A stretch of 64,000 nucleotides of DNA from positions 1-64,000 of the IMG/VR virus record IMGVR_UViG_3300010885_050982; one strand, written 5' to 3'. Within the stretch, counting starts at the first letter, position 1, and each line of letters opens with the position of its first letter. This DNA is from a virus. The notes under the pieces were generated by a model, which was not told the DNA's origin, did not search any database, and was given only the letters and a program-made list of their open reading frames with translations. Positions 36,166-60,326 of this stretch are shown here, one piece after another. The position numbers and the translations under genes are program-made.

Positions 36166-39100
36166 ATGAAAACCATTCAAGAGCGAATCCAAGACTCCAT
36201 CGAACGATATTCGGCTACCGAAGGGCGATGGATAACGATCAACGGCACTCACGTCCAGTTGGACAAGAGCGGGATTGTCGTGTCTGGCCCTGATCGGCTT
36301 CGGGGTCGCATGAAAGCGCCGGAAGCCCCGTCGTGGTTTCGAGGAAAGAGAAAGTCTCCTCCTCAAGACACCCCGGAGATTGAATTCAAATCAGCGGAAA
36401 AACCAAAGCTGAAAGCCAATCTTGGTGCGGACATCTACAAAATGATGCTCGCGCATCAGGCCGCAGAAAAGCAGAAAAAGGACGACGCGGAAGCGAGCAG
36501 GGAATTTGACCGAAAGGACGCCATTGCGCGAAAGTTGCCACCAGCCGCGAAAGACGTGAAACATTCCGGCCTGAATGCGATCAAAAAACAGATCAAGGGA
36601 GGTAAGCGGGCGGATGGTCAGTTCTTCTCACCTGAAGAAATGGACGAACTGTATCGCACCTTCTTGTTCACAATGCGAAAAGCAATGGGCATGACGGAAC
36701 CGACCGCACGAGACCAGCAAGCATTCCGGGACAATCCAGATCACGTCCTAAGCAAGTTTTCAAAGCGATTTACCGAAGCGTATGCAAAGTCGAAAGCCAA
36801 ACTTGCAGCGGGACAGAAAAGCCTGTTTGATGACGACTTCGAGGATTTCCCGGTCCCCGCGATTCCTGTCGCCGAGATTCCGGCCCCAAAAGAAGAGAAA
36901 AAGACGGTCGTGACGGAAAAGTTCGTCGCGAAACCGAAAGTCACCACATTCAAGGAAGCGAGATCCGAGAAGCCATCCAAGCCTGTAGCCAAGCACGGCA
37001 CTCCAAAAGGGAGGCACTGGATTACGCTCCATCACGGCGCTCTTGGCGGCAAAGGGTCGCGGGTGCAGATCGATGACGACGGAACGATCGTTCTGGGTCA
37101 CCCGTCGCTTGTGGGTAAAAATCTCAGCGATATGAAGAAAGTCACAGAATCGGTCAAGCCTGATCAAGAGGAATCGACAGGCGAAGACCGGTCTGCGGAT
37201 CTTCGGTTGGCCGACAAGCTTGCCGACAGGCTTGCGTCGGGAGAGGATCTGTCCGCGAAAGAGTTGTTCGCAATCGCCAATGAAAATCACGGCGGAACAC
37301 GAGCCGAAAACAAATACGGACAGTCCCAAGCGTACGACTCGCTGGAATATGCGATCAACAAAAACCTGGAAGGGGAAACCGATCCACGGGCGAAGCTGTA
37401 TTCAGCGGTCGAGCAGGCTCGTCAAATGGCGAAAACTGTCGATCAGCTGCCCACTCAAACGAACCGAGACGGCAACAAAGTTTTGATGCAGCAGTTTTCG
37501 ACCCCGCCGCACTTCGCCTATGCGGTAAATTGGTTGGCAAACATCGAGCCGGGCGACAAGGTGCTCGAACCATCCGCTGGAACTGGATCTCTCGTCGTTC
37601 ACGCAAAAAATGCGGGCGGGGACGTCTACGCAAATGAACTCGACCCGGATCGCGCTCAGTATCTGGAGGACATGCTCGGAAAAGGGAAAGTCTCCGTTGA
37701 GAATGCGGAGCAGATTGCCGGTATCCTTCCGGGTCGGGGCGTCCCCAAATTTGACACGATCGTCATGAATCCGCCATTCTCGTCCACGGCAGGTCGAACA
37801 GACAGCAAAGACATCCTTACTGGCGCAAAGCACATTGAGGAAGCGGCGATGTTGCTGAAGGATGGGGGGCGGCTTGTCTCCATTGTTGGCGGCGGAATGG
37901 GTCCGGACCGATCGCGGTATCGAGACTTTTTTAAGAAAATGCAAGAAAATGGTTTGATCCTTCGTGCAAACGTTCTCGTTAGCGGGGAAGATATCTACTC
38001 CAAATATGGAACGAAGTTTGATTCGAGAGTTTTGGTCTTCGACAAGACATCAAAAGAAGATCGACTTTCTGAAAAACCGGTTTTCGGCGAAGTTGATGAC
38101 ATTTCAGATTTGATGGAACTTTTAGAAGGGGTCCGAAATGACCGAACTCGAATTGATGAACCATCCAGCGAACAAGCTGGCGACGAAACTGATCAAGCAA
38201 ACGGGGGAAAATCCGAACCCGGAGATTCTGCCGATTCTTCGGCTGGCGCAAGTGTTTCTGGAGACGAAAGTGACGCCATCCCTGGAGATGACGGAACTGG
38301 CGAATTCGGCGTATCAGATGGAGGCACAACCGAAAGAGACAGTGGCGTGCCTGCTGACGTCGGACCCGGAGCAACTGGATCTGGATCGAGCGGAGAATCC
38401 GAAGCTCTCCAGTCAGCTATTAAGCGACGCACTGGACGTTCTCGAAAGGGAAATGCGGGAGGAAAAGGAGCATCCGGGAAGGATACCGGCGGAAAACCTC
38501 CAGAACAGTCTGATGCTGATAAACAGCGGCTTCGACCTCCAGAGCCTGTAGCATTCGAGTCCGATTCGTCTGGTCCCGTCGACAAGACTGGCGAGGGGGA
38601 TGTTGCGACTCAGTCTGATCTCGGCGAGTCGCTGTATGATCTCTATAAACCGCAAGCACTGGTAAAGGGCGCCCACCCGCACGCCACGGCGCTCGTCGAA
38701 TCGGCGGCGATGGCAGCAGTCAAGCCTCCGGTCGCGACGTATCGCCCTGTTTTGTCTCCGGACATCGTCGAAAAAGGAATGCTGTCGGCTGCGGCACTCG
38801 AAACAGTCGTGTATGCGGGGCAATCGCACTCACAGATGCTGGAAGCCGACCCTGGCAAGCCCGAAATGCGTAGGGGGTACTTTATCGGCGATGGCACGGG
38901 TGCCGGGAAGGGAAGGGAGTTGTCCGGGGTCATTACCGACAACTTCAATCAAGGCCGGAAGAAAGCCGTCTGGTTGACGAAATCGCAAGGACTGATCAAC
39001 GATGCTGTCCGGGATTGGGTGGACGTCGGGAATGATAAATCGGACATTTTCCATTTCGACAAGATCCGGAAAGGGAACAACGTACCTGATGACGGGATTG

Positions 39101-42100
39101 CGTTCATTACTTACTCTACATTGCGATCGAAACCGAAGGATGCGAGCAAGAAATCAAACATCGACCAGCTTGTTGACTGGCTTGGGCCTGATTTTGATGG
39201 CGTGATCGCTTTCGATGAAGCCCACCTGATGGCAAACGCCATGAACACTGAGGGTGAGCGGGGAATCAAAAAAGCGAGCCAGCAGGCATTGGCCGGGATT
39301 GAATTGCAGCAGCGACTTCCAAGCGCGAGAGTCGTGTATTCGTCGGCAACCGGAGCAACCGAGCTTGGTAACTTGGCCTATGCCGAACGTCTCGGTATCT
39401 GGGGTCGCGGAACGCCATTCGCGGACAAGAATTCGTTCATCAACGACATGTCCGAGGGCGGGGTCGCTGCGATGGAACAAATCGCTCAGTCACTCAAGGC
39501 AACCGGAAGCTACTGCTCACGCGCAATCGCGATGGATGACGGTACGCCTAACGGCAAGGTGACATACGATCGATTGACGCATCACCTGAGCGACGATCAG
39601 CACGAACAGTACAACGCATTGGCGGATGGCTGGCAGAGTGTTTTGGAAAATATCGACAAAGCATTGGAAATGACGGGCGGCAGCGATAGCCCACAAGCAA
39701 AATCAGCCGCCAGTTCGGCTTTCTGGGGGGCGCAACAGAGATTCTTCAATCAAGTCATGACGTCGATGCAGACACCGGCGGTCATTGAGGCGATGTCGGC
39801 TGACATTAAAGAAGGTCGGTCACCGGTCATCCAACTCGTCAACACGATGGAAGCCTCTACGAAACGAGCGTTGGCCGAACGCGGCGAGGACGACGAAGAT
39901 GCCGATATCGACGTCTCGCCTCGCAAGATCCTTCAGCAGTACCTTGCCACGTGCTTCCCAACGGAGCGGTACGAAAGCTACACCGACGAGGACGGGAACG
40001 AGCGGTCGCGCATGGTCACGCAAGTGAAGCGTGACGAGCACGGAAAGCCCACGACCAATGACAAGGGTGAAGTCTTGATGGAACCGGTCCACGACCCACG
40101 GGCGGTCGCGTTGCGTGACAAAATGCTTCAGGACGTTGCCGCTTACCGAATTCCAGATCCACCAATCGATCAGATCATCAACCATTTCGGTCACGAAAAA
40201 GTTGCTGAAATAACCGGACGGTCGATTCGCAAGATTAAGATGGAGGAAGATGACGAGCCGAAGTTCTATCCGCGAAACTCAGCGGTCGCGAATCAGGCGG
40301 AGTCCAAAGCGTTTCAAGATAACCAGAAAAACATCCTGATTTTTTCGGGGGCTGGGGACACAGGCTTTTCGTACCACGCTGCGCGAAACATCAAAAACCA
40401 AGGTCGTCGTGTCCATTACATGCTTCAGCCAGGCTGGCGTGCGGACGCTGCCGTGCAAGGATTCGGTCGAACGAACCGAACCAACCAATCGTCGGCACCG
40501 CATTATCGGCTTGTTGAAATCGACGAGTTGAAGGGTCAAAAGCGTTTCATCTCGACAATCGCTCGACGACTGGATCAACTGGGCGCGATCACCAAGGGTC
40601 AACGTCAGACCGGCGGTGGCGGACTTTTCGCCGCCAGCGACAACTTGGAAAGCACCGAAGCGAAAGCCGCGCTGGAACAATTCTTCCACAACCTCAAGGC
40701 CGGTGCGATTGAAGGGTTGGATCACACTGACGTCATGCGTCAGTTGGGCCTTGCAAAAAAAGAAGAGTCCAACCGAAAACAGGGCAAGGATACTCCTCCT
40801 CCAGAAATGGGGCAGTTCTTGAATCGCATGCTGTCCATGCGCGTCGGGATGCAGGGGAAAGTGTTCGAAGCGTACGAAAAGCAGCTTCAGCAAGTTGTCG
40901 CCAAGGCAATCGAAGACGGCACGCTCGACTCAGGGGTCGAGAATTACCCAGCAAGCCAGATCAACCGAAAACAAGACTCGGTCGTTTTCAGGGAGCCGAA
41001 GAGCGGCGCGGAAGCTCGGCACATCATCGCGAAGTGCAAAACCAAGTCCGACAAAATGCCGTTCAAGGAAATCGAATCCAAATCAAAACAGCCGGAGAAG
41101 TTTGTCCGAAACAAGCAATCTGGTCACGTCTACGCTGCTTACAAGGGCGTCAACGAAACCGACCCAAAAACCGGCGAAGTCAAAGAGACGTACGTTTTGG
41201 TTGGTGCATCTGGAAATCGTCGATCGGGAGTAGAGAAAGCTGACTTAGAAGGCGATTGGACAGCACGTCGATACAAGGACTGGAAACAGCCGAAGTTCGA
41301 CAAGCTCGACAAAGACGAAGCGGAGCGACTTTGGAAAGATCAGTACGACAAGATTCCAGACTTCAGCGAATCGGATCAGCATTTTCTGACAGGTGCGCTG
41401 CTGCCGATCTGGGACCGAATCCCAGGGAATAAGCCGAAGATCTATCGCATGCGTCTCGAAGACGGTCAAACGATCGTCGGTCGGCACATTCCAGCAAAGC
41501 ACGTCCCAGAAATGCTCCAGCGACTTGGGGCACATGTGGAAGCCGAATCTCACACGGCAGCGGGAACACATTCCGCACTCACTGGAGGCCGACATCGAGC
41601 CGTGCTGGCAAACGGATGGAAACTCAAGCCGGTCATGGTGCAGGGTGAGCGGCGAATTGAGTTGGTTGGACCATCCTCAATGTCCGAGGTGCGCCAGATC
41701 GAAGCAGACGGAGTCAAGAAGGAACTCAAGGGTGGGTACGATCCGCACTATTACGTCCCGGTCGGTGAGGATGGCGTGAAAGTTCTGGAGAGACTGACGA
41801 AATCACGTCCGATTACGGAAGTGGCTGAAATCGAGAAGAGCAAGTATTCGCGACCGGCAACCACAGAAGGACGAATCCAGGCGGCACGGGCAACTGTGAT
41901 GCACGCCGTCGAGTTTGTCGCGATGCCTCGACGAGAGTTTTTCCAACAAGCGGCGGTGCCGAAATCCCGGTTCGAGATGGCGAAAGAGCGTTACGCCCGC
42001 CACAAGCCCGCGTCAGGGCAAATGTCGATGGAAAGCCACTGGATCACTCTCCACGGGGGCAGCGAAGGCGGCGGAACTCACGTTGAGGTCGACGGGAAAG

Positions 42101-44277
42101 GGAATATCACGAAAGGTCCGGCTGGATTGGCAGAGAAGGGGATTAAAAATCTCTCTGATTTCAAAAAAACCGAAGATAAAGAACCTGAATACCCAGCGAG
42201 AGACGATGGCCGACACATTAAAGAAGTGTGGCAAATGACAAAAGCGGAGCACGCCAAGATTTATGGAGGGAAACATGGAAATCATCGACTTGGAAGCGAA
42301 GTGGGCACGCATCTTTCCGGAGACACAACACTGAAGCCGAATCAAGTAGATTTTGATTTTGCTGGGTCTTCACTTGGGATATCTGCATCCGAAGCAAAGC
42401 GGGCATGGAACCAGTTTACTTGGGGCACGGAACTTCCGCCTGTAGACGTCGACAAGCGACACAAGCACCTTGTCGAGCAAGCCGTTCTTGCCGGAAAGAA
42501 TGTTCCGGACCACATCTTGGCTGATTACCCGGATATTGCGAAACTGCGGAATACGAATCGGAAGCCTGTCACCGATGGAGATCTGGATCGCCTAGCCGAC
42601 AACGGGATCGACATCGTCAAACATCCAAAAGGCGGCTGGACCGCCGAGAGGGATAGTCATGACGAAAAGGGACCGTACCGGGAGCACATTGGCCAGTCGT
42701 TCGCGTCTCAGCAGGAAGCTGCGGACGCGGCGTTGAACTGGGCACAGCCGGAGAAAATCAAAGATCCATCACAAACAAAGCCTCACGAACTGTCCATGGG
42801 CGAATCCACAGAGAAAAGCTTGGGTGAGTTGAGAACAGAATTCAAATCGAAAATGGACGAGGTCGACAAGCGACTAGAGGCCACGACTCGACAACTCCAA
42901 GGAGAAAAGTCGCGGGCCGGACGAAACATATCGAAAATCGAAGATATCGAAAATCGATATAAGCGAGCCAAACAGGAAGCAAGCGACGAAAAACAGAAAA
43001 TCGTCAGTCATTATAGTCCGCGAATGATTAACCACCCGGAACACAAAGCCCAGCAGGCAAAAGACGCGGAATCTTGGCGGACAAAGAAAGAGCAAGAAAA
43101 CAAGAAGATTGCCGACAACGACAAGCTCATGAGAAAAGAGCAGTGGGACAAAATACAATCGTCCGGCGGGGTTGATGCCGCCAAGAAAACGGTTCAAGAG
43201 AATCTCAGGCAGTTGCAAATCAAGCACAATCGAACGAAAGAATCAAACCGCTGGAAACTGCCAAAACCAGAACGATTCAATCGCGAATTGGAGTATCTTG
43301 AAGATTTACAGAAAGAGTTTGGTGGCGAAAGCGGGATCGACAGGGCACAGGAGGCAAAGTCGTCACCAGCGGTCAACCGAGAAGAACTCGAAGGGCAAAT
43401 GTTGATGTACAAGGACGCTATCGCAATCAAAAAAGCGAAAGGCGAACCTATTCCGCAAAAGTGGCTGGACGGAATGGCTGATATTTCCGACAAGCGTGGC
43501 GGGCGAACTCCAGAAACAGGTCTGGTCGCATCAAATCATGTTTTCGGTCACCCAGAAACAACGCAAGACCCGAAGTATGCAAACCTGATTCCGATCCGGG
43601 TCGGCGACATTGAAAGCGTGAACCGAAAGACCGAGCAAGCACAGGAAATCTACAATCAGTTGGCGTCGAAGATATCAACTGCACAGTGGCAGGAGAAAAA
43701 CAAGAAGACTAACCCAAAGGCCGCTAAAGCAGCGTCAGCGTATCTTCAGAGTCATGAAGGCCAAAGTGATATCCAGAATCGTGACATGCTTCGCAACGAG
43801 ACGATGCCGGAGCTTCAGCGGTTGCGTCGTGAATTAGCTGGGCAGAAACAATCGCCCCCCGAGCCAATCAATGGCGAGTATCACTCAAAAGACGTAGCCG
43901 ACAAGCCGATCTCAAATGAAGTCTACGCCCAAGAAATGCGGAAGATGATCGAACTGGCAAATCAGCCGAAAGGCACGCTTTCCGGTAGAGCGAAAGAAGA
44001 TTTCGACAGTTACAAGCCGATCATGGAGCGGGACGTAAATAAAGAAGTTACCCCGCGCAAACGGGCGAACGCGGCGATGTACGCGATGCATGACTTACAC
44101 CCAGACGCACAGCAGGCATTGTCAGATCACCTGAAAACGATCGCACCGGAAGCACATCAGCACTTCCATGCGAACAAGCCGATTCATTTTGCGAATGTGA
44201 AAGCAGGAGACGACTCTCCAGAAAAGACGAAATACTCCAGAATCGCCAATGCTCGCATCCGATTTTGCGGTCGATGA
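36166..44277 (+). CDS. Giant polyvalent protein: leader modules, N6-adenine methyltransferase, Strawberry-notch (AAA_34/Helicase_C_4) SF2 helicase and C-terminal modules
   Basis: MTase QQFSTP, LEPSAGTG, MNPPF (37768); helicase GDGTGAGKGR, FDEAH, YSSATGA, EITGR, QGFGRTNRTNQ; WQMT and H...V..A...GK.VP..IL.DYPD motifs. Confidence 0.88.
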   Translation: MKTIQERIQDSIERYSATEGRWITINGTHVQLDKSGIVVSGPDRLRGRMKAPEAPSWFRGKRKSPPQDTPEIEFKSAEKPKLKANLGADIYKMMLAHQAAEKQKKDDAEASREFDRKDAIARKLPPAAKDVKHSGLNAIKKQIKGGKRADGQFFSPEEMDELYRTFLFTMRKAMGMTEPTARDQQAFRDNPDHVLSKFSKRFTEAYAKSKAKLAAGQKSLFDDDFEDFPVPAIPVAEIPAPKEEKKTVVTEKFVAKPKVTTFKEARSEKPSKPVAKHGTPKGRHWITLHHGALGGKGSRVQIDDDGTIVLGHPSLVGKNLSDMKKVTESVKPDQEESTGEDRSADLRLADKLADRLASGEDLSAKELFAIANENHGGTRAENKYGQSQAYDSLEYAINKNLEGETDPRAKLYSAVEQARQMAKTVDQLPTQTNRDGNKVLMQQFSTPPHFAYAVNWLANIEPGDKVLEPSAGTGSLVVHAKNAGGDVYANELDPDRAQYLEDMLGKGKVSVENAEQIAGILPGRGVPKFDTIVMNPPFSSTAGRTDSKDILTGAKHIEEAAMLLKDGGRLVSIVGGGMGPDRSRYRDFFKKMQENGLILRANVLVSGEDIYSKYGTKFDSRVLVFDKTSKEDRLSEKPVFGEVDDISDLMELLEGVRNDRTRIDEPSSEQAGDETDQANGGKSEPGDSADSSAGASVSGDESDAIPGDDGTGEFGVSDGGTTERDSGVPADVGPGATGSGSSGESEALQSAIKRRTGRSRKGNAGGKGASGKDTGGKPPEQSDADKQRLRPPEPVAFESDSSGPVDKTGEGDVATQSDLGESLYDLYKPQALVKGAHPHATALVESAAMAAVKPPVATYRPVLSPDIVEKGMLSAAALETVVYAGQSHSQMLEADPGKPEMRRGYFIGDGTGAGKGRELSGVITDNFNQGRKKAVWLTKSQGLINDAVRDWVDVGNDKSDIFHFDKIRKGNNVPDDGIAFITYSTLRSKPKDASKKSNIDQLVDWLGPDFDGVIAFDEAHLMANAMNTEGERGIKKASQQALAGIELQQRLPSARVVYSSATGATELGNLAYAERLGIWGRGTPFADKNSFINDMSEGGVAAMEQIAQSLKATGSYCSRAIAMDDGTPNGKVTYDRLTHHLSDDQHEQYNALADGWQSVLENIDKALEMTGGSDSPQAKSAASSAFWGAQQRFFNQVMTSMQTPAVIEAMSADIKEGRSPVIQLVNTMEASTKRALAERGEDDEDADIDVSPRKILQQYLATCFPTERYESYTDEDGNERSRMVTQVKRDEHGKPTTNDKGEVLMEPVHDPRAVALRDKMLQDVAAYRIPDPPIDQIINHFGHEKVAEITGRSIRKIKMEEDDEPKFYPRNSAVANQAESKAFQDNQKNILIFSGAGDTGFSYHAARNIKNQGRRVHYMLQPGWRADAAVQGFGRTNRTNQSSAPHYRLVEIDELKGQKRFISTIARRLDQLGAITKGQRQTGGGGLFAASDNLESTEAKAALEQFFHNLKAGAIEGLDHTDVMRQLGLAKKEESNRKQGKDTPPPEMGQFLNRMLSMRVGMQGKVFEAYEKQLQQVVAKAIEDGTLDSGVENYPASQINRKQDSVVFREPKSGAEARHIIAKCKTKSDKMPFKEIESKSKQPEKFVRNKQSGHVYAAYKGVNETDPKTGEVKETYVLVGASGNRRSGVEKADLEGDWTARRYKDWKQPKFDKLDKDEAERLWKDQYDKIPDFSESDQHFLTGALLPIWDRIPGNKPKIYRMRLEDGQTIVGRHIPAKHVPEMLQRLGAHVEAESHTAAGTHSALTGGRHRAVLANGWKLKPVMVQGERRIELVGPSSMSEVRQIEADGVKKELKGGYDPHYYVPVGEDGVKVLERLTKSRPITEVAEIEKSKYSRPATTEGRIQAARATVMHAVEFVAMPRREFFQQAAVPKSRFEMAKERYARHKPASGQMSMESHWITLHGGSEGGGTHVEVDGKGNITKGPAGLAEKGIKNLSDFKKTEDKEPEYPARDDGRHIKEVWQMTKAEHAKIYGGKHGNHRLGSEVGTHLSGDTTLKPNQVDFDFAGSSLGISASEAKRAWNQFTWGTELPPVDVDKRHKHLVEQAVLAGKNVPDHILADYPDIAKLRNTNRKPVTDGDLDRLADNGIDIVKHPKGGWTAERDSHDEKGPYREHIGQSFASQQEAADAALNWAQPEKIKDPSQTKPHELSMGESTEKSLGELRTEFKSKMDEVDKRLEATTRQLQGEKSRAGRNISKIEDIENRYKRAKQEASDEKQKIVSHYSPRMINHPEHKAQQAKDAESWRTKKEQENKKIADNDKLMRKEQWDKIQSSGGVDAAKKTVQENLRQLQIKHNRTKESNRWKLPKPERFNRELEYLEDLQKEFGGESGIDRAQEAKSSPAVNREELEGQMLMYKDAIAIKKAKGEPIPQKWLDGMADISDKRGGRTPETGLVASNHVFGHPETTQDPKYANLIPIRVGDIESVNRKTEQAQEIYNQLASKISTAQWQEKNKKTNPKAAKAASAYLQSHEGQSDIQNRDMLRNETMPELQRLRRELAGQKQSPPEPINGEYHSKDVADKPISNEVYAQEMRKMIELANQPKGTLSGRAKEDFDSYKPIMERDVNKEVTPRKRANAAMYAMHDLHPDAQQALSDHLKTIAPEAHQHFHANKPIHFANVKAGDDSPEKTKYSRIANARIRFCGR
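38138..38551 (+). CDS. Nested out-of-frame gene (137 aa, helical) within the linker of the giant protein
   Basis: GAAGGGG SD 38125-38131; coincides with the low-complexity D/E/G/S linker of the host frame. Confidence 0.55.
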   Translation: MTELELMNHPANKLATKLIKQTGENPNPEILPILRLAQVFLETKVTPSLEMTELANSAYQMEAQPKETVACLLTSDPEQLDLDRAENPKLSSQLLSDALDVLEREMREEKEHPGRIPAENLQNSLMLINSGFDLQSL

Positions 44278-44337
44278 AATTCCCGGAAACAGATAAACTC
44301 TGCCAGCGACAATTTACCCAGAAGGGACACGATAAGC

Positions 44338-47139: not shown

Positions 47140-47180
47140 AGTCTTACGTGAGAACGAAACCCATAAGAAAAGAGGAAGTT

Positions 47181-47420
47181 ATGTCAGTTGGAACCATGCA
47201 AGGGCCTCCAGCGTACAAGTTCCCGGAAGCGCAAGCCCAAGCTGAAGCGATTATGTCAAATTTGTCCCAGAGTGACGACGAAATGGATGCCGTTGAAGAG
47301 CGAAAGCACGCTCGGGACGTTGCTCGGGCAGAGGGTGGCGACAGCGGCCCCCAGATTGACCCTGAAAAGTCCAATCGAATCGACAAAGCGAAAACATCGT
47401 TCGACGTACGAGGTTTCTGA
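47181..47420 (+). CDS. Small acidic hypothetical protein
   Basis: GAGGA SD; TGATG coupling to the next gene. Confidence 0.6.
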   Translation: MSVGTMQGPPAYKFPEAQAQAEAIMSNLSQSDDEMDAVEERKHARDVARAEGGDSGPQIDPEKSNRIDKAKTSFDVRGF

Positions 47421-48712: not shown

Positions 48713-48720
48713 GGTGGATC

Positions 48721-48936
48721 ATGGACAAAAATGCGCGATACGATTATTACGAATACGGCGATGACCTGCTGGCGAGGAAGATTGCCGGGGCTGGCGAGTT
48801 TTCCCTGTTTGACGTTTGGAAAATCGACCACTGGGAAAAGTCTTCAGACATGGCGAGATTCGTGTCGACCGCCACCAGGATTCGAGACGTGGACGAGTAT
48901 TTGAAAGCGAATCCGCGATTTTTGGCGGCGATTTGA
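48721..48936 (+). CDS. Small hypothetical protein downstream of the RelA/SpoT-like gene
   Basis: GAGGTGG SD then ATG 48721. Confidence 0.55.
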   Translation: MDKNARYDYYEYGDDLLARKIAGAGEFSLFDVWKIDHWEKSSDMARFVSTATRIRDVDEYLKANPRFLAAI

Positions 48937-49153
48937 GAAACGCAAAAGGCAAAACATGAGTGTCTACCTGCCGGGAACCTGCTTCCGTTGTTTGAAGAGG
49001 ATGAAACCGAAGACGGATATGCGTGCCAGAGCCAGTACGGGTTATTTGAGGCATTGATAGAAATGGCCCCTCGTTTGACGGTTCGAATTCCGCTTACCAC
49101 TGCGGACACTCCACTGCTGCCGCGTTGAATCCTGTCGCGGTCCGTTGGTTTTT

Positions 49154-52100
49154 TCATTTGACCTCCTGCAAGCGCTGCAATGCAGCGAGAATTCGCGCGT
49201 TGCGCTCTCGGTGGTCGAATTTCTGTCGATGTTCCAGGTACGACAGAAATCGAGACTCGTGATCGCGAGCGACTATGTCGCGACATTCTTGGGCGATCGG
49301 GGCGAGCACAAGCCCGACAAAACAGCAAGCGAGAACGTAGAGTATTTCTTTCATGATTTCATTCCGTATCTTTTAAGTGTTCCGCATCACAGGCGTCGTC
49401 AATTTCGGCGTGAGTCATGTTCGGGTATCGTGTGTGAGTTGGACATCGGTATCCGAACCCCATTTCATGGGACCACCCTGCTTTGAGTATCTCGCCTTTT
49501 GCGACTCCGTTAAACCAGGCCCGATTGTCGCGGAACTCAGCACAGGCGCAGCATGCAGGTTCATCGCAGGATATTATGGCAACTAAGTCAATTCTGAATC
49601 CCATCTCGGAAGCATCCTTCATTCATTACGTTTGAATTGCCAAATTCCGGGATATTGAGACTCAATATATTCTATTCTGTCAACCACCCAATTGGCTCTA
49701 TCTTCCGACGTGGCCGACAATGCTTGAGGAATATCCTCGGACAACACTACGCGTCCGTCGCGCGTCGTGAATTTAATTGATATGAACTGGTCGCGACTGT
49801 CGCGTCCGATTTGAACAATCCCGCCGCCGTCCATGAAACGCCCCTCTCGTGAGACCATTACTTTCAAACATTGGCAGAGTAAAGATCAGTAACTGACGAC
49901 TCGACCTGCTTGGGCGCGAACCGCGCCAAGAACTCGGCAACGGACCCATAGGGCCGACGTCGATTGATCACGCCATACGCTTTGATCCCGTAAACTCGCC
50001 GGGTTTCCATGTCGACCATGTAGTATCCCGACCCGTTGTAGTCGATATTGACGTATTTCCGGCCTCGCTTCAGGATGACTTTCGTTCCCCAGTGAGCATC
50101 CATTGGGCAGTCGTCGTGTTTTTGTCGTTCGATCGCTCGGGCCAACGCAACCAGTTCCGCGTCGAATTCGTCAGCCGTTGGGGCGACATGCTTCGGGACC
50201 GGGTCGGTTTCCTTGCGAGGAGCCTCGAAGAACTCGTATTCGCTCTCCAAGGGAAAATGGCTGAACTCGTAAGACTTGACGATCCATCCGCTATACCGAT
50301 GGTCGCCAATCCAGTTGCCCTCACCGAACGAGTAGTTGTCCCGGTGCTCGTGATCTTTTCCGTAGTGAGCAGTGGGAGGGAACTTGCTTGCGGCGTCCAA
50401 CATCTGTTTGAACGATTCACGCGAGCCATACCCGAAGCCGATCACGACTTCGCGAACAGTCCTGCCGTATGACAACTGGATGATGTTTGTTGATGCTATT
50501 CATCGATCCGGACCACAAATAAAGATACTTGCGACCGATTTTCGCGACTCTCACTGTTTCGATGATCGGTTCCGGGTTGCTAGACAACTTTCTTGTGCTT
50601 CTGCGATACGATTGATCCACCTCGCGGTACAGCACGTCACCAACCTTGATCGGTGGCAGTTCAAGCGGCGTTTTCGTCATGGCGTTTCCTTAGCAGGGGA
50701 AGTCGTTTTGAAACAATATCAGCAGCAACAATGTTCGCCGGGCAACCAAACAAATCCGCTAACAAGCAAGTGGAAACGAGACCAGCCACCTCGGTACTGT
50801 CAAGGCAATCAGGTTCGTCGTTTAACGCAATCCACTCAACGCCGAACCAATAAGACGGCGTCTTGTACTTTCGCTTTCGGTCGTACACCTTCAAATCGGC
50901 TCCGCTTTTCGACATGCCAGATTTCCTTTAACAGCAGGGGAATTGAGTTGGAATTAAAATTCGGACAAGATCGTTTTCAGGACCAAGTCGAAAAGAGATC
51001 GCATCCAAGCAAGGTCCGTCAGTTGCCAGTGAGATATCCAATGATCGTATCGCAAGATCTCATCATCTTTGGGGACGCGAACTTCAACTCCTTACAATTC
51101 GATCGCATGCCCATGCTTCGCTGCAAGTTCGCGACCCGCATCAGTGAAGTCGACGTACATGTCCTTGGCGCGACCCTTTCCTTCATTGTCGTGGATTACG
51201 ATGAGCCCCTTCTTGACAAGGTCCGACAGGTTTCCACGATGCTCTTTCGTTGGAGCGATGTTCCCGCAGGATACCCAGGGGGTTCCTGACCAATTACCGG
51301 CGTCGGCGGCATACATCAGGAAAGTTGCCAGCGATGCGTCGGTCAATTCGAGTGATTTGTCTGACATTTTTCGTCTCCTCAATTTGCTGCTTTTCTCATC
51401 CCCCACGTTATTGCAAACGCACGTCAGCACGGAAGGATCACGAACAGGGACAAGAATTTTTGAGAATTCATGAAATTGTTTTTTCAATTTTCTTTCCAAT
51501 TTCCGTGATCCTTTCCGGCCTCGGTGCGTTTGCCCTTATGTGGGGACAATAAAAACGAAAACGAGAAGCGGAGAGAATCATGAAACGTAAAGAGATGTCG
51601 CTTCGAGACTATCACAACTCTCTGAAAAACGGAGCGGAGTACTTGTGGGTGTGCGGCATCGGTTATCCAACAGGATGCGATTTCCGTAACAACCTTGAAG
51701 AGTCGGAGTCGATGGAATACTGCGACCTGAACGAGATTATCGATCAGCTTGGGTTGTGGGACCTGAATGGGATTGTTGACCAAAATAACCGCTGGGAGTG
51801 GGACGGGGCCGGAAACCCAGTTGACCATCAAGGAAATTCGATACTCAACATCAAGGCTATGCCTTAGGGAGCGGGATCATGAAGGAACGATGGGAAGTCT
51901 ACGTCAGCGGCGGGAAGCATCAACTTGAAATCGAGTCGGAACGAGACGAGCACTCCGTCCGAATCGAAGCGGCGGGAATGATCGGTGTCGACGTCATGAA
52001 AGTGTCTGTCGCGATGATCGCCTACTGCAATCGCAAGATGGACGGAAAACGGGTCGACGGTGTTGTTGTTCCGCGAAGATACTCCAAGGAATCGCTTGCG

Positions 52101-52388
52101 AACGGGCGAATGTTTCAACTCGGGAACGACTGGGAGGTTATCCCCAGTGGAGACGGCGGCTGGCATGTGGCGAAGACCGTAGAAAAGAAGGGTTACGTCT
52201 ACGAATCGAAAGACAGCGAGAACAACATTACGTCTCGGGTGTACAAGAAAGATAACGGGGCGTATTCAGTTCGCACGATCGACGGCGATTCAGGACAACC
52301 GATCGAAATCCGCAACGGGTATCGATCGGAAGACGACGCCAAGAGACACGCAAACAAAATGACTGGGAAAGGAAGTGAAACCAGATGA
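49154..52388. other. Divergently transcribed accessory block (minus: 49154-49354, 49359-49622, 49619-49867, 49864-50475, 50661-50915, 51092-51367; plus: 51580-51867, 51879-52388)
   Basis: Small coupled ORFs diverging from twin promoters at 51415-51531. Confidence 0.65.
51415..51531. promoter_or_regulatory. Divergent TGATCC-N15-CGTTT promoters (51415-51440 minus; 51506-51531 plus)
   Basis: Both read CGTGATCCTT..GTGCGTTTGC; each is followed by a GGAG SD and ATG. Confidence 0.72.
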
Positions 52389-52598
52389 GCCATTCACCGG
52401 GGCCGTGGAAGATAGGTCAAAAGTTTTCTGGCAATATGGATGAAATCGAACAGCCAGACGGGCGAGCTATTGCTGTTGTATGGACGAGGATACTCGACCT
52501 ACTGTCGCGCTAATTTTTGAGATTCTGGCAAAAAACCTAATTTGATATGCTCGCCGGTCAATACCGAGCGAGCATTTTCATTTTTCGGACGATCAGCC

Positions 52599-54215: not shown

Positions 54216-54233
54216 AAGCTTTGGAGCAAGATC

Positions 54234-54419: not shown

Positions 54420-54420
54420 G

Positions 54421-54732
54421 ATGCGATTGAGCGAGTTGGAGCCAAGGTGGATTCACCCCAGCATGTTCGTTTTCAAGTGTCCCTGTTGCCGTAATGTCTG
54501 GTTGACATGCAAGAGCAGTCCGATGACCCGGCAGGAAACATGGAATATCTTGAGAAGTGGACTCGGCGAGGACTGGAATCAAATTGTCGTTCCCCCGAGC
54601 CCGGAAACGCAATGGTCAATTTCCAATAACGTCCCAAGAGGATTCGCGGATAACATTTCGGTTACGCCCTCGATCGACGCCAGCGCATCCGGTCATTGGC
54701 ATGGGTTCATCACCAATGGGGAAATCAAGTGA
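54421..54732 (+). CDS. DUF6527-like protein
   Basis: F.CPCC ... SVTPSI ... HWHGFITNG motif. Confidence 0.6.
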   Translation: MRLSELEPRWIHPSMFVFKCPCCRNVWLTCKSSPMTRQETWNILRSGLGEDWNQIVVPPSPETQWSISNNVPRGFADNISVTPSIDASASGHWHGFITNGEIK

Positions 54733-55847
54733 TGTCTATTGCTGAGCGAATCCAGGTGGCCAAAACACGATTCTTGTCGTGGCCAGACCAGTACGCAAAG
54801 TTCAAAGTTGCGCATGGCCAAAAATCGTTGTGGGGCGAAGAGGATGAGGTAAAGCATCCCCGTAACGAAATCGGCGAATTCGCAAAAAAAGACTCTCCAG
54901 CAGTGATCCGAGCGGATAAGGGTAACGTTTCTCCTATTGGTGACGAAAACAAACCTAACGGAGAAAAGAAAATGGAAGCGAAAGAATTCACTGGAAATGG
55001 CGGCGCGAAAGCAGTTGTAAAACCAGCAAGCGACGGCAACGGACATTCAGCCGTTATTGAATGGAAAGCTGGAAACAGCCTTCATCGCGACATCGCTGGA
55101 AAGGATTTCAAGGGGCGGCTTGTTCGGTTCGGTGCCGATGGCGTGCAGCACGTGATGACCGGGCATGGTGAAGTCATGCTGGATATCGGTATCGTTAAGA
55201 TCGAAGGTAAATCGCGGGCGATGAAGGTTCGCGTTTCCGACAAGCCGGAGCTGCAAGCTGCGGCGGAAGTATTGCTGCCGGAATACAAAGCTGGGTGGGA
55301 AAAACACCTAAAGACACAAGCGGATCTTGAGCAGCAAGAAAAACAACGCCGCGAAGCTACGAGAAGCGATTCGCACAAGATCGCTCCGATTTACCATGAC
55401 GGCGAATACCTGAGCGGATATCAAGTATACGGCGATGAAGCCGAAATACTGAAGGATCTTGGGTTGGCAAAGCATGTCAGCGGGTGGGGTTACGAAGTCT
55501 CGCAAAAGGTCATCAAAGATCTTGGAAAAGAGTTCACCGTTGAGCAAGCCAAGGCGTACGCCAAGCCTGCAATGGACGCCAAAGCCGAATCTGACGCCAC
55601 GCGAGAAGAGGCAAACAAAGCTAAACGTGAAGTCATCGAAAATAAGAAGTCGGAAATGGTTGACGCCGGAAAGTCGTTCGCGACTCCAAAGCAGATCGCG
55701 GTGATCGAACGAGCAAGACGAGACTGGTTCGATATTTTCGACGGCGCGGGCGGCTATGGAATGAACGGGCCAACCGACGAACAGTTGGAGTTGATGACCA
55801 AAGACGAAGCGTCGAGCCTGATTTCAGAAATCTTGGCTTCACGATAA
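54732..55847 (+). CDS. Polyvalent protein: leader fused to a cargo domain of unknown function
   Basis: AERIQVAKTRF..QYAK, GQKSLW, E.KHPRN..GEF; C-terminal ATPKQI...TK.EAS.LI motif. Confidence 0.75.
   Translation: MSIAERIQVAKTRFLSWPDQYAKFKVAHGQKSLWGEEDEVKHPRNEIGEFAKKDSPAVIRADKGNVSPIGDENKPNGEKKMEAKEFTGNGGAKAVVKPASDGNGHSAVIEWKAGNSLHRDIAGKDFKGRLVRFGADGVQHVMTGHGEVMLDIGIVKIEGKSRAMKVRVSDKPELQAAAEVLLPEYKAGWEKHLKTQADLEQQEKQRREATRSDSHKIAPIYHDGEYLSGYQVYGDEAEILKDLGLAKHVSGWGYEVSQKVIKDLGKEFTVEQAKAYAKPAMDAKAESDATREEANKAKREVIENKKSEMVDAGKSFATPKQIAVIERARRDWFDIFDGAGGYGMNGPTDEQLELMTKDEASSLISEILASR
54904..54930 (+). promoter_or_regulatory. Intragenic TGATCC-N16-CGTTT promoter motif
   Basis: Followed by GGAG (54960) and in-frame ATG 54972. 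Confidence 0.55.
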
Positions 55848-55862
55848 TCGAGGACGCCTTGC

Positions 55863-58800
55863 ATGGAAACGACCGAACGAATCGCCAGAGCGATGGAACG
55901 ATACTCGAAGGAATTCGAGTCGAAGCATCCCCGCGATCAGGATGGGATGTTTGCTGAAAAAATAGAGTCGACAGCAGCGATGGCAGACGGGGCATTCAAT
56001 CCATCCTGGAGCGTCCGTAAGCATGGTCGCATGGACTGCTTGATGCCAGTCAACCACGACAGCAAGCCGTTTGTTGCAGAGCTGCAAAGAATCAGCAGTT
56101 CGCTATATGATCTCGATAAAGACGATCCTGAGCAAAAGTTCGCAATCGACATCGAGAATCGCATAGGACAGGCTGTCCACGAATTCACATTCAGGAACGT
56201 TCACACGGAATACGGAAACGAAAAGTCGGCATTTGGCGTCACTGGGACTGGATCTGCCACGGAGGTCGTCAAGAATGCTGCGGCATGCTTAATCAAGGCG
56301 ATCAAGTTGTATTCGCACGCTCTTCCTGTAATCTACTTCACTGCCGCAGAGAGAAGCCGAATTGGCTTGTATTCGCTGCTTTCTAAACGGGCTGAAAAAG
56401 TGACTGGATATATTGGATACCGCGTTGATCTTGGAAATTCCGATCATGCGCTGTTTGCTCTTGTCGACCCAAGCAAGGCGACGGAGTTCGAGTCTGTAAT
56501 CAGACGCCAAAATGCTAAAGTTGAGCGATACCAGAAATGGGACGAGTCGAAGCACGTTCGCGACGAAGTCGGAAAGTTCGCAAATAAATCGTCATCAGGT
56601 TCGATCAGCGAATCCGACAAAGTTGCGATGCCGTTCGATCCATTCCCGAAAACATTCAAGGAAATGAAGAACCGGGATTATGTCGACGTATGGCATGGAA
56701 CAACATTACAGCGGCTTGAGAAGATTATCGAAAGCGGTAAGACGAAAACTGGCGAGCGAGGTCAGTTTTTGGTGTCCCCAAGATTCCGCCATGCAAGCCA
56801 ATATCCAGAGTTCCCTGGAGAAGACGAAGATCCAATCGTCGTCTCGATTCGAGTTCCAGTGAGCAATCTCCTTCCAGACGAAAATGATCAACCGGGAATT
56901 AGCCTTGAGCAATCGCTTTTTGGCAATCACTTCGGGCTTGCTGCTGATGTCGATGGAGGAATAGACATCTCTCAGATTCGCGGAGTCTACGGTGAGTCTG
57001 TCGATGATGCATGGACAGTTGCTGAAACTGGCAGGCATGTTGCCGAATCAATTCTCAAAAACAAGTCGAATCGGCTCGATCCTGTCGAGTCTGCTCGCAT
57101 TGATTACGCCGAAAACGGCACGAAATCAAAAGCGTTTAAGGCATGGTTCGGCGACTCGAAGGTTGTCGATTCCGATGGCGAGCCACAAGAAACGCACGGG
57201 ACCGCGAAACCGGTCTACCACGGGACCCCGCATGACTTCGAAGCTTTCGACAGCAGTACGCAAGACTGGTCGTGCGAGGTCGGGAAAGGGTTCTACTTCA
57301 CGGACAACGAAGAACTGGCGAGATCAGAATATTCGAAGGGCGGAAAAGTCATCGCCGCGTACCTGAAGATTGACAAGCCTTTGGATTTGGACAAACCAAT
57401 CTCCGACTCTGATCGTGACGCGATCATGGAAGCGGGCAAGAAAAAATTCAATCATGTCGACTGGAACGCTCCCAGCGGACTGACCGGGGACGGCATTCAC
57501 AGGTGGATCGACAATCAGCTCGGAACAGCATTCGTCAACGACGTCATTGAGGCTGCTGGTTTCGATGGGATCACTCACATTGCGAGAAATAAACTGGGGG
57601 GTCGCGATAAAAAGAAGATGGATGACTTCGGTCGCGTCTGGATTGCGTTTGCCCCCTCGCAAGTGAAAAGTACTGACAATCGAGGGACGTTTGACCCGAA
57701 AGACAATCGCATGGCATATTCCAAGAGAATTGCGAATGCTATCGAGATGTATTCGTTCGACCCAAGTCAACCACGGGACAAGTCTGGCCAATGGACAGCC
57801 TACGACATCGGCCACAAATCGGGGATGAACGGGTTTGTCAGCAAAAGAGAAAGGCAAAAAGCCCTTCGCGAAAACGGGCACGATATTGCTGATTCAAAAG
57901 TGATGCAAGAGTTCAATCGTGGGCACAGCGATGCTATAAGCCAAAAGCAGAACGAAAGGGAGCAGGCGAAGAATCTGCGACTCGCCCCATTCATAGAGGC
58001 TGCGAGGAAAAACTGGAAGCCTGGAGATTTCGACATTGACGATAGCGATACGCAAGCATGGGAGGCGAAATTAAAATCGATCGCTGAGGAAGATGCAGAC
58101 AATGCAGACAATGAAATGGATGCTGAGAACGAAAAACAGCAACAAATCAATCGAGACATGAAAAAACACCTTGTTTCCGAAGAAGTTACATCAAGAGCCA
58201 GAAAGATTGTTGGCGATTGGGCGAAAGATCATGGATGGGAAGTATCGAACGAACATTCGTCTCGAACGAATTCGCATTACTGCACCCTTGCGAAAAGAAA
58301 CGGAGACGAGGAGGAATCGTTTACTGTTCGCGTTTCGGATCATCACGCACCGCATGGAAGCGGCTTCAATGAGGCTAAGCAGGAGTACCATGAGCCATCT
58401 GATGTGAATATTGTTCCTGAACTACCACCTTATGATGACGAATCAGACTGGAAAGAGTTTGACGTTAAGTCTGGCCCGGATTGGTCAAGATTCACCGTTG
58501 ACACCACTGAACTTGATAAGATGGCGAGAGGCGATGCCACAGACAGGCAGTCCTATTCCAAGAGAATCCAATCCGTCCTTGAACGGTACTCGAAAAAACC
58601 AGGCGAGAAGAAAGAGCACAAATTCAGTTCGACTCAAATCGACGTTCCACCAGAGATCGCAGAGAAAATCAGGAAACTTGCCGAGCGAATCCCGGACAAT
58701 CAGCTTGCCGACGATGGTCGCGAAACAGACTTCCACATTACGGCGCTTTTCGGCCTGCACACGAACGATCCTGACGACGTGAAGGAAGTTCTGTACGGCC

Positions 58801-60326
58801 AGCGTCCAGTAACGATCGTCTTTGGGAAGACGTCAATCTTCTCGAATGCCGATGCGGACGTCCTGAAACTCGAGATACTGGGCGACGGTATTCGGGAATT
58901 GAACAAGCGGCTGAAGAAAGGATGCGAACACACAGAAACTCACCCGACGTACCAGCCGCATTGTACGGTCGCCTATCTCAAGCCGGGGAAAGGCCACTTC
59001 TGGGTCGGCGGCGAAATGTTCGATCAATTGAAGTTCGATGCTGATGAAGTACAGTTCTCGAATAAGCAGCGGGAAAAGACGCCGATCTATTTGGTTTCAG
59101 AATCGAAGGAAATCGACGGTCGGATAATTCGAGCGAAAGAGTTGTACGCCAAGCATAAACCAGCAGCAGGGCAATCTTCGTTCAACTGGGATGAATCAAG
59201 AGTCACAAGGGATGATGAAGGGAAATTTGAGCACTGGAACACCGGCGAAGTGTCGGCATCGGCGCGTCCGCTTATCGTCGATTTTGAACGACAAAATGAT
59301 CGAGTGGAATTCAAACCACCGTCGCAATGGACAGATTCCGATAAGAGAAAAGCGAAACGACTGATCGCAGGTGCAAAAGCGGCAATGGAAGATCCACATT
59401 CAACAGGTCCATCGCTGTCGCATCCGATCCATACCAAGGAGTCTGCCGAAAAAGCAATGTGGAAAGCGTTGGAGGTCAGGAATTTTGGGACAGCCATGAG
59501 CAATCGATACGACGGCGATGATGGCGGACTGGAGAGCCTTGGACGCAAAATGCTTCAAGCTGCCAAGGACGAGATGGAATATGGTTATGAGAAACGTCAG
59601 TTGGCGACACTGAAGAAGCCAAGGCAGAAAACAGGATTTGACCGGGAACTGGAAATCATGTTTGCAGCAGACAACTACTCAAGAGCCAAGCAGATCGTCG
59701 AAATCTACGGGAAGAAACCCGCAGGCGGACAACGGTCAATGTTTGACGAAGAGGATCATCCACGGGACCCGGCAAGCGGTGAGTTCGTCGAAAAGGATGG
59801 CGGCGCGGCCGCGAACGCATGGAAACCAGAGAATCACGTCAAAATCGCAGCCGATTCGATCGAGCGACTGCGCGGCGGAGACGTGTATCGGCTTCTCGAT
59901 TCGTCCCCGCCGGGAAACATGAATCAGATGGCTGAGTACATCCGTAAAAGCAGGCCGGACCTCGCCGGGCATGTTCAGGAAGCGACGGACGACATCAACG
60001 AAGATCGCGGAACGAAACCGCCAGAGCCGAAGCCAATGGAGCGTGTCGGCGTGCCAGGCATGCAAAAGAACCTGTTCGACGAAGAGCCGAGCGGACAAAA
60101 GCAGTTGTTCGACTACATCGCACCCAGCAAGAAAGACGTCAAGAAAGCGAAACAGGAAGACTTGCTTGCTGGCGTCAACTCTCGACTGAAGGAGCAACTT
60201 AAAAACAAGGAAACTCTGTCACCGGCGGACCTGCTCACGAACGTAACTCATGAGCCTCTCGCCGGGCAGCGTGATTTATTCACAAAGCGATTCGATATCG
60301 CTAAAGAACGGTTCAATCGGAAGTAA
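55863..60326 (+). CDS. Polyvalent protein with ~6 modules, including two ADP-ribosyltransferase-like domains and an Acb1-like 2H phosphoesterase
   Basis: VWHGTT..LVSP..HA.QY (ART-like); FKAWFGDSKVVD..YHGT..GFYFTD..GFDGI..QVKS..N.GTFD (ART-PolyVal-like); HIT..FG and PHCTVAY (2H). Confidence 0.85.
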   Translation: METTERIARAMERYSKEFESKHPRDQDGMFAEKIESTAAMADGAFNPSWSVRKHGRMDCLMPVNHDSKPFVAELQRISSSLYDLDKDDPEQKFAIDIENRIGQAVHEFTFRNVHTEYGNEKSAFGVTGTGSATEVVKNAAACLIKAIKLYSHALPVIYFTAAERSRIGLYSLLSKRAEKVTGYIGYRVDLGNSDHALFALVDPSKATEFESVIRRQNAKVERYQKWDESKHVRDEVGKFANKSSSGSISESDKVAMPFDPFPKTFKEMKNRDYVDVWHGTTLQRLEKIIESGKTKTGERGQFLVSPRFRHASQYPEFPGEDEDPIVVSIRVPVSNLLPDENDQPGISLEQSLFGNHFGLAADVDGGIDISQIRGVYGESVDDAWTVAETGRHVAESILKNKSNRLDPVESARIDYAENGTKSKAFKAWFGDSKVVDSDGEPQETHGTAKPVYHGTPHDFEAFDSSTQDWSCEVGKGFYFTDNEELARSEYSKGGKVIAAYLKIDKPLDLDKPISDSDRDAIMEAGKKKFNHVDWNAPSGLTGDGIHRWIDNQLGTAFVNDVIEAAGFDGITHIARNKLGGRDKKKMDDFGRVWIAFAPSQVKSTDNRGTFDPKDNRMAYSKRIANAIEMYSFDPSQPRDKSGQWTAYDIGHKSGMNGFVSKRERQKALRENGHDIADSKVMQEFNRGHSDAISQKQNEREQAKNLRLAPFIEAARKNWKPGDFDIDDSDTQAWEAKLKSIAEEDADNADNEMDAENEKQQQINRDMKKHLVSEEVTSRARKIVGDWAKDHGWEVSNEHSSRTNSHYCTLAKRNGDEEESFTVRVSDHHAPHGSGFNEAKQEYHEPSDVNIVPELPPYDDESDWKEFDVKSGPDWSRFTVDTTELDKMARGDATDRQSYSKRIQSVLERYSKKPGEKKEHKFSSTQIDVPPEIAEKIRKLAERIPDNQLADDGRETDFHITALFGLHTNDPDDVKEVLYGQRPVTIVFGKTSIFSNADADVLKLEILGDGIRELNKRLKKGCEHTETHPTYQPHCTVAYLKPGKGHFWVGGEMFDQLKFDADEVQFSNKQREKTPIYLVSESKEIDGRIIRAKELYAKHKPAAGQSSFNWDESRVTRDDEGKFEHWNTGEVSASARPLIVDFERQNDRVEFKPPSQWTDSDKRKAKRLIAGAKAAMEDPHSTGPSLSHPIHTKESAEKAMWKALEVRNFGTAMSNRYDGDDGGLESLGRKMLQAAKDEMEYGYEKRQLATLKKPRQKTGFDRELEIMFAADNYSRAKQIVEIYGKKPAGGQRSMFDEEDHPRDPASGEFVEKDGGAAANAWKPENHVKIAADSIERLRGGDVYRLLDSSPPGNMNQMAEYIRKSRPDLAGHVQEATDDINEDRGTKPPEPKPMERVGVPGMQKNLFDEEPSGQKQLFDYIAPSKKDVKKAKQEDLLAGVNSRLKEQLKNKETLSPADLLTNVTHEPLAGQRDLFTKRFDIAKERFNRK
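58620..59090 (+). other. 2H phosphoesterase domain (Acb1/T4 gp57B-like)
   Basis: Two HxT motifs at 58734 and 58959 with DGRE..H and Y.PH.T.AY..PG context. Confidence 0.75.

Follow-up and report, generated by a model that had tools for sequence, protein, structure and literature searches.

The locus downstream of the portal gene

The DNA considered here is the first 64 kb (64,000 nucleotides, the window) of one 103,387-bp contig of an uncultured phage, IMG/VR virus record IMGVR_UViG_3300010885_050982. Directly 3' of its gene for a Mu-type portal protein, i.e., in the virion-gene context of a portal-terminase phage, lies a 24-kb array of open reading frames (ORFs), six of which, named here cargo A to cargo F, begin with variants of one short helix ending in tyrosine (Table 1). 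The large terminase, the portal, a protease-scaffold protein, and the major head protein are all encoded on the 103-kb genome. We propose that the array encodes head-cargo ("polyvalent") proteins built from exchangeable enzyme modules, with a composite junction at each boundary. By their domain content and by analogy with the polyvalent-protein literature, A-F would be present in the virion, injected, and active in counter-defence.

A preliminary description of this DNA had assigned to the modules an N6-methyltransferase (MTase) with a Sno-type helicase, a zeta-like kinase, ParB-like and RelA/SpoT-like domains, two domains resembling ADP-ribosyltransferases (ART), and a 2H phosphoesterase. Pfam bears out the helicase of A (AAA_34, 9e-105; Helicase_C_4, 5e-82) and, in F, one ART (ART-PolyVal, 3e-20) and the 2H phosphoesterase (2_5_RNA_ligase2, 3e-7). 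The MTase (a weak MTS match in A), ParB_N, RelA_SpoT, and Zeta_toxin (E=0.025, in the C-extein of B) assignments stayed below the Pfam cut-offs, and the second ART-like domain found no confirmation. Two polypeptides carry at least two unrelated effector domains each, namely A (MTase-like and AAA_34/Helicase_C_4) and F (ART-PolyVal and 2H). D matches the C-terminal part of the phrog_21 profile (E=1.3e-64). No Phage_Mu_F (PF04233) domain was found in A-F by Pfam at E ≤ 0.01.

Cargo B is interrupted by an intein (Pfam Hom_end_hint, LAGLIDADG_3, and Hom_end; window 45390-46530, about residues 350-730), which is unusual inside a putative injected effector. The large terminase (window 18576-21074) also carries an intein, with Hint_2 and Intein_splicing matches, giving the phage at least two.

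The lineage is known from metagenomes only. The DNA from the portal gene to B had no near-identical match among isolate phages and plasmids, and tblastn of the portal and of the D junction gave no match among isolate phages. Searches of viral contigs with single proteins (the portal and a relative's protein, P0004) gave no match either, whereas alignment-based searches succeeded and recovered related portals on 80 IMG/VR contigs at 31-46% identity.

Table 1. Features of the portal-cargo region and of the head genes downstream. Positions are those of the window, or of the genome where so marked; aa, amino acids.
Feature	Position	Strand	Remarks
Portal protein, Mu type, 580 aa	34357..36099	+	Pfam Portal_Mu E=1.3e-29; phrog_113
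Portal C-terminal tail	36043..36081	+	two Tyr sites (R-Y-A-K, R-Y-G) around a short helix
Cargo A, about 2703 aa from ATG 36166	36166..44277	+	MTase and Strawberry-notch-type helicase unit
A leader helix and box A	36166..36291	+
A internal junction	36757..37101	+	Tyr site, G-Q-K-S-L-F, spacer, box A; helix copy 36757-36828
A internal junction	41962..42120	+	helix with E-R-Y-A-R, degenerate GQ element, box A; helix copy 41962-42030
A C-terminal trailer	44230..44265	+	K-Y-S-R, helix, R-F; 14.8 bits with the scaffold-derived matrix
Cargo B, 925 aa	44338..47115	+	leader, box A, Pro-rich repeats, intein-interrupted P-loop domain (zeta-like, weak)
Small ORF, 90 aa	47148..47420	+	only a C-terminal trailer (47373-47402)
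Cargo C, 430 aa	47420..48712	+	leader, box A, ParB_N-like and RelA/SpoT-like regions (weak Pfam), trailer 48659-48697
Block of seven small ORFs, 3.9 kb	48713..52598	mostly -	between C and D, at the place of P0004's continuous junction
Cargo D, 536 aa	52599..54209	+	leader, G-Q-R-D-L-F, box A, ParB-like domain, trailer 54129-54164
Cargo E, 372 aa	54732..55847	+	leader, Tyr site, G-Q-K-S-L-W, box B, then a further domain
Cargo F, 1487 aa	55863..60326	+	about seven modules including ART-PolyVal and 2H phosphoesterase; junction cassettes between them
F leader and box B	55863..55952	+	16.7 bits, top match of the scaffold-derived matrix
F junction 1	56520..56579	+	E-R-Y-Q-K, then box B
F junction 2, directly after ART-PolyVal	57714..57794	+	double Tyr site around a helix, degenerate box B
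F junction 3, directly before 2H	58551..58595	+	double Tyr site around a helix; 21.6 bits with the leader matrix
F junction 4, directly after 2H	59118..59228	+	helix, L-Y-A-K, GQ element, degenerate box B
F junction 5	59673..59786	+	double Tyr site, G-Q-R-S-M-F, box B
F C-terminal region	60060..60314	+	three GQ-type elements and a terminal trailer helix (60264-60314)
Protease-scaffold protein, 630 residues	genome 72016-73908
Major head protein	genome 74476-75573		phrog_1005

A composite junction confined to the cargo

The leaders of all six cargo ORFs fit the consensus M-x(4-8)-[EDK]-R-I-x-x-A-x-x-R-[YF], and their spacing from the initial Met is constant in five of them, that of B being 3-4 residues longer. 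Further copies of this helix are found within A and F, and the portal and five ORFs (A, the 90-aa ORF, C, D, and F) also end in it. All leaders, internal copies, and C-terminal copies reported in the preliminary description were found in place. The motif is also more frequent there than chance would allow. A loose regular expression, applied to all ORFs of the genome, finds the motif within the first 45 residues of 6/8 portal and cargo ORFs vs 8/132 others (Fisher p = 8e-6), and within the last 25 residues of 6/8 vs 5/132 (p = 1.3e-6). A matrix made from the six leaders only recovers three internal copies of F at 14.8-21.6 bits; on 147 unrelated representative proteins, it gives 10 matches of at least 14 bits vs 0.2 in shuffles. 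One motif-like match, in an isochorismatase-like ORF (65783-66748), lies inside a globular enzyme and was taken as chance. The leader DNA is merely 40-67% identical, so the conservation acts on the protein, and a recombination hotspot at the DNA level was rejected on the same ground.

The helix is one part of a larger junction, which the preliminary description does not mention. In order, the junction often starts with Y-S-[KR], followed by the helix R-I-x-x-A-x-E-R-Y-[SA]-[KR], a GQ element (G-Q-[KR]-x-L-[FW]), and then one of two boxes. Box A, H-W-I-T-L-x-G-x-H-V-x-I-D-x-x-G-x-I-x-x-G-P (a W-I-T beta-meander), is present in three copies in A, while B, C, and D have one each. Of box B, [WF]-D-E-x-x-H-P-R-x3-G-x-F, E has a single copy and F four or five. 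Among the 140 ORFs of the genome, box A, box B, and the GQ element are confined to the six cargo proteins. Pfam searches with the junction pieces alone (E up to 10) returned noise only and no model for the GQ element or the boxes, and no Pfam or PHROG family was found for the domain of E that follows box B. The AlphaFold2 (AF2) model of one A junction (41962..42120) shows a helix and a three-stranded meander at a mean predicted local distance difference test (pLDDT) score of 65 and has no significant match in the PDB. It is also worth mentioning that in B, directly after box A (window 44545-44775), there are about six Pro-rich 11-residue repeats, G-I-P-G-H-R-P-P-S-N-V, which show a weak similarity (34% by blastp over 85 residues) to the Pro-rich linker in the protease-scaffold protein. 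Like the boxes and the GQ element, the B intein and the occurrence of the motif in that protein, outside the window, are additions to the preliminary description.

The tyrosine motif in the protease-scaffold protein

The structure model divides the protease-scaffold protein into three parts: an N-terminal domain, whose residues 30-240 reach pLDDT >90, then a disordered linker rich in Pro and Gln, and finally helices at the C-terminus. The solved structures most like the N-terminal domain were those of T4 gp21 (Z 5.8 over 116 aligned residues) and of herpesvirus proteases (Z 4-5.7), and an Atlas search gave Mu-like_Pro, GPO, and S78 as leads (0.83-0.87). In 29 aligned homologues, His158, Ser216, and Glu218 are invariant and His104 nearly so, a pattern which suggests a catalytic role of His158 and Ser216. 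A fusion of protease and scaffold of the Mu gpI/P2 gpO kind is well supported, although not proven, and the N-terminal domain is, on its model, a plausible active protease.

In the same alignment (this phage and 28 homologues), the core [ER]-[RK]-Y-[SA]-[KR] fills 5-6 separate conserved columns. Three of these columns come right behind the protease domain, another one or two fall within the helices of the scaffold part, and the last is some 50 residues short of the C-terminus. One conserved copy falls exactly at the boundary between protease and scaffold, in a low-confidence loop. A matrix built only from the scaffold Tyr sites of other phages, when applied to the present genome, gives 18 matches of at least 9 bits vs 2.4 in shuffles; ten of these are on junctions of cargo A, C, and F, and three in the phage's own scaffold. 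The cargo junctions, the portal tail, and the scaffold share one motif.

The preliminary description had supposed that the motif is a packaging and/or protease-cleavage signal, and for the protease half the scaffold columns, the matrix matches, and the dependence on portal type described below offer comparative support. A helix common to the cargo and the protease-scaffold protein makes it probable that the cargo enzymes are loaded into the capsid and, once inside, cut into their modules. More specifically, we propose that the Tyr motif is the cut site of the head protease, that the N-terminal leader resembles the capsid-targeting leader of T4, and that boxes A and B are cargo tags; as a whole, this reading of the sequences is given a probability of about 0.5.

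Two observations were made beside this gene and its homologues. Just upstream of it, a 79-residue ORF (genome 71457-71696) with Cys-x-x-C pairs contains a Tyr-site match, R-H-R-Y-A-K, of 12.6 bits with the scaffold-derived matrix. In a related phage (L014, 12674-14833), the protease-scaffold protein has an insertion of about 190 residues tagged with box B and standing right behind one of the conserved Tyr sites, and judging from this sequence, cargo may also be strung onto the scaffold.

Junctions as seams between modules

In F, the blocks of homology to proteins of other phages start just after the junction cassettes and end at them: the ART-PolyVal block ends at residues 620-649, residues 912-920 and 1077-1090 delimit the 2H block, and the following block opens at 1315-1323. 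In A, the cassettes occupy residues 1-47, 203-317, and 1938-1990, and the trailer residues 2694-2705; cassettes flank a 1570-residue MTase-helicase unit, which contains no confident junction, only a lone I-Y-S-K at residue 615. P0004, a 1002-aa protein from a 104-kb contig, is C joined to D: C is 47% identical to its residues 1-478 and D 53% identical to its residues 466-1001. The single internal helix of P0004 aligns with both the trailer of C and the leader of D, which shows that leader, internal junction, and trailer are one element. The notion of "plug-in" effectors put forward in the preliminary description is supported by the F blocks and by the union of C and D in a relative.

In this phage, C and D are separated by a block of seven small ORFs, which looks like a moron-like insertion into a cargo polyprotein; the one ORF tested of the seven (50372-51289) gave no family. 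Elsewhere, neighbouring cargo genes share a reading frame. A and B are separated by one stop, TGA, and a 60-nt open spacer (window 44275-44340), and E and F by one stop, TAA, and a 15-nt spacer (window 55845-55865). A nonsense mutation that recently split a longer gene, or low-level readthrough, could account for this, but statistically the shared frames are not significant. Recoding of stop codons that would join the ORFs is unlikely, as two different stops lie between the portal and A, and an ORF of 2708 codons is open under code 11.

Junctions of this kind might be nothing else than passive linkers or recombination scars, i.e., flexible connectors kept where modules are shuffled, with no assembly signal in them. 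The ends of the homology blocks, the fusion of C and D in a relative and their separation here by an insertion within the junction, and the in-frame pairs A|B and E|F with a single stop each would all fit this view. However, the identity of the junction DNA (40-67%) is too low for homologous exchange, and the element is retained at the protein level in proteins that share less than 50% identity. The same core also occurs in the protease-scaffold protein, which is not modular, and the three tags (GQ element, box A, and box B) are strictly cargo-specific. We consider this explanation improbable.

Relatives and portal fusions

A profile of the leader plus box A was searched in 1.84 billion representative proteins (50% clustering; E ≤ 0.001) and found 467 of them. 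Among the best 150 of the 467, the median protein is about 1050 residues long, and 2-5 copies are present in over half of them. Pfam was run on 37 of these proteins; six have a portal domain, and the remaining ones carry domains of polyvalent proteins (2H, InPase, LPD1, ART-PolyVal, DarA_C, Zeta toxin, and Acb1). Ten representative homologues are annotated without a name or as "hypothetical protein". In the 60 residues upstream of box A, the tripeptides ERY, RYA, YAK, KYA, QYA, and RYS are 5- to 9-fold enriched. In the IMG/VR loci with related portals, many ORFs downstream of the portal open with the same junction grammar, and N-terminal tags occur in 19/98 ORFs between portal and protease vs 18/508 elsewhere (p = 3e-7). 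C-terminal trailers are not enriched in these loci (4/69 vs 21/587 ORFs); they were rejected as a general feature of the family and are peculiar to this phage.

About half of the portal ORFs in the related loci extend 700-2700 residues further. Likewise, 14 of the best 150 representatives are a Mu-type portal fused at its C-terminus to cargo (E down to 4e-154 against the portal of the window). In these fusions, the portal core is followed by a disordered stretch, then x-Y-[AS]-[RK], and then the GQ element and box A or B; the Tyr sites in the portal tail of the present phage correspond in place to this first junction. As the motif persists right after a covalently fused portal, where targeting is needless, targeting cannot be its sole role. 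Cargo fused to the portal must, moreover, be detached before it can exit through the portal channel, which argues for a role in cleavage. In Mu, the portal protein gpH is trimmed at its C-terminus in a gpI-dependent manner.

Six other representatives (P0017, P0003, P0093, P0031, P0076, and P0136) have an HK97/SPP1-type portal (PF04860) fused to cargo. They keep box A, but the residues just before it are K-S, and the Tyr motif hardly ever precedes it. An x-Y-[SAG] within 45 residues before box A is present in 22/41 modules of phages with a Mu-type portal vs 1/12 of those in PF04860-portal fusions (Fisher p = 0.007), while K-S within 6 residues before box A is found in 7/12 PF04860 modules vs 1/41 Mu-type modules (Fisher p = 4e-5). 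Judged from these sequences, the K-S form is a second dialect of the same junction grammar. The pre-box element changes with the type of head while box A stays, and this is how a protease site should behave. In HK97, protease cleavage of the capsid protein takes place between Lys and Ser.

The main rival to the cut-site reading is that the motif serves docking only. The Tyr-ending amphipathic helix would then be an uncleaved cargo-loading peptide, comparable to encapsulin targeting peptides or to the coat-binding helix of scaffolds, which binds the scaffold, the capsid interior, or the portal, and the copy in the scaffold would reflect the same binding site. The position of the helix at the extreme N- and C-termini of cargo ORFs, the usual place of targeting peptides, its hydrophobic stripe (I, A, I/M, Y) and modelled helical form, and the location of scaffold copies in helices are in accordance with this, as is the N-terminal targeting signal of P1 DarB, for which cleavage was not demonstrated (PMC9024508). 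It explains less well why the motif stands immediately after covalently fused portals, where docking is needless, and why a conserved copy marks exactly the boundary between protease and scaffold. Furthermore, the strongest conservation concerns three positions around the Tyr and not the face of the helix, phages with another portal and head type keep box A but have a different element before it, and the C-terminal trailers are not enriched in related phages. Thus, docking does better on terminal positions and helical scaffold copies and worse on portal fusions, the boundary site, and co-variation, and we regard it, as a sole function, as rather unlikely. Cleavage and docking roles could also coexist, by analogy with T4.

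It could also be assumed that the motif acts only after injection, being recognized by a host protease or tyrosine-modifying enzyme or serving as a localization or unfolding signal at ejection, with no role in head assembly. Processing after delivery has been proposed for polyvalent proteins (PMC5512222), and boxes A and B, to which no function has been assigned, would head each released module. However, such a signal leaves unexplained both the conservation of the Tyr motif at 5-6 positions of the scaffold and its co-variation with the portal type, and the idea seems very improbable. In other tailed phages, the scaffold is degraded and leaves the head before DNA packaging.

A proposed model of cargo loading and processing

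If the Tyr motif is the cut site of the head protease, the events can be imagined in three steps. The protease would be the N-terminal domain of the protease-scaffold protein, with its own sites at the domain boundary, inside the scaffold, and near the C-terminus. In the first step, cargo would enter the procapsid, in relatives by covalent fusion to the portal and in this phage by the N-terminal leader and/or the tags. Next, the protease would trim the portal tail, degrade the scaffold, and separate the functional units of the cargo from one another, leaving the MTase and helicase of A together as one uncut unit. Finally, the freed modules, each headed by the GQ element and a box A or box B tag, would leave with the DNA. 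In this model, the N-terminal leader is a short removable leader ending in a protease site, as the capsid-targeting sequence of T4 is, and the GQ element with box A or B at the heads of modules may serve capsid retention, docking, or ejection.

Several points weigh against this model. If the motif is a pure cut site, it is not obvious why the portal and five ORFs should end in a full helix, and about half of the box A modules have no recognizable Tyr site upstream. The test of co-variation is based on six PF04860-type proteins only, which is a small sample. The protease domain has no Pfam match, no significant match by Foldseek, and modest Z-scores by VIA. Y-[SAG]-[KR] occurs 70 times vs 14.4 expected in 36 distinct sequences homologous to the protease-scaffold protein, a few of them fragments; this excess speaks for the model, but the comparison overstates the evidence because conserved columns are not independent events. 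In addition, long helices are predicted around several of the scaffold Tyr sites, and a protease would cut such helices poorly unless they unfold.

Beyond being cut, the junction helix could serve as a self-associating connector. The trailer of one protein would pair with the leader of the next, forming a non-covalent chain of effectors anchored at the portal, and such a chain would fix the copy number and the order of ejection until release by the protease. The idea comes from the relatives that string cargo covalently on the portal, compared with the eight genes here that end or begin with the same helix; both parts of it, the chain and its consequences, are a long shot.

Apart from the cargo and head genes, a full DNA polymerase III beta sliding clamp, with all three Pfam domains detected, is encoded at genome 68226-69326.

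Comparison with known systems

Polyvalent proteins, among them P1 DarB, were catalogued by Iyer, Burroughs, Anand, de Souza, and Aravind (2017; PMC5512222). As in the array described here, they are giant multi-domain proteins encoded by portal-adjacent genes, and they include the MTase-SF2 helicase dyad, ART-PolyVal, 2H, ParB-like, and RelA/SpoT-like domains as well as portal-fused forms. Packing into the head and injection have been predicted for them (PMC5512222), and a polyvalent protein was reported to be abundant in phi24B virions (bioRxiv 10.64898/2026.04.10.717836). The catalogue, however, concerns globular domains, and a word search of its text found no description of a junction motif. 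For the processing of polyvalent proteins, a metallopeptidase (MPTase) domain was proposed (PMC5512222); none was found in the proteins of this array. More generally, no description of junction motifs was found in the literature searched, including the paper on MuF toxins (PMC5576092), nor any published cleavage specificity for Mu-type head proteases.

The T4 internal proteins and Alt (PMC9024508, PMC9026906) offer the closest comparison for the leader. In T4, several head-internal proteins have a short conserved N-terminal leader, as the six predicted cargo proteins do here, and the leader ends in a motif that the head protease gp21 also cuts in scaffold-core proteins, where for the present phage cleavage is predicted. 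The motifs differ, [LI]-x-E in T4 and E-R-Y-[SA]-[KR] here, and so do the lineages of the proteases; besides, the element described here is also found between domains and at C-termini, with cargo-only tags behind it. By analogy, the leader is a counterpart of T4-type capsid-targeting sequences and not a member of them. In phiKZ and SPN3US (PMC10052503, PMC7411985), many head-internal ejection proteins are also cut by the head protease at a short consensus. These are, however, giant phages with T4-like proteases that cut after Glu, and polyproteins tagged domain by domain are not described there.

In P1, the N-terminal 30 residues of DarB, a 250-kDa MTase-helicase, are sufficient for capsid targeting (PMC9024508). 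The Dar proteins of P1 share no consensus (PMC9024508), whereas the six proteins analysed here share one, which extends to hundreds of metagenomic proteins. The MuF/SPP1 gp7-toxin fusions (Jamet, 2017; PMC5576092) are likewise encoded by a portal-adjacent gene and carry effectors on a module for incorporation into the head. They differ in that no MuF domain was detected in A-F, and incorporation here would rely on short motifs.

Implications

If the proposed reading is correct, a sizeable group of uncultured phages would follow a readable rule for capsid loading, consisting of a site matched to the head protease and then a cargo tag which is independent of the protease. Injected effectors, many of which are likely anti-defence enzymes, would become predictable from sequence alone, and polyvalent proteins could be divided computationally into working units. 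The leaders and tags might also be used as handles for loading foreign proteins into capsids, as is the case with the T4 and P1 targeting sequences. As for the question of how giant polyvalent proteins are processed (PMC5512222), the proposed reading suggests the head protease and not a built-in peptidase.

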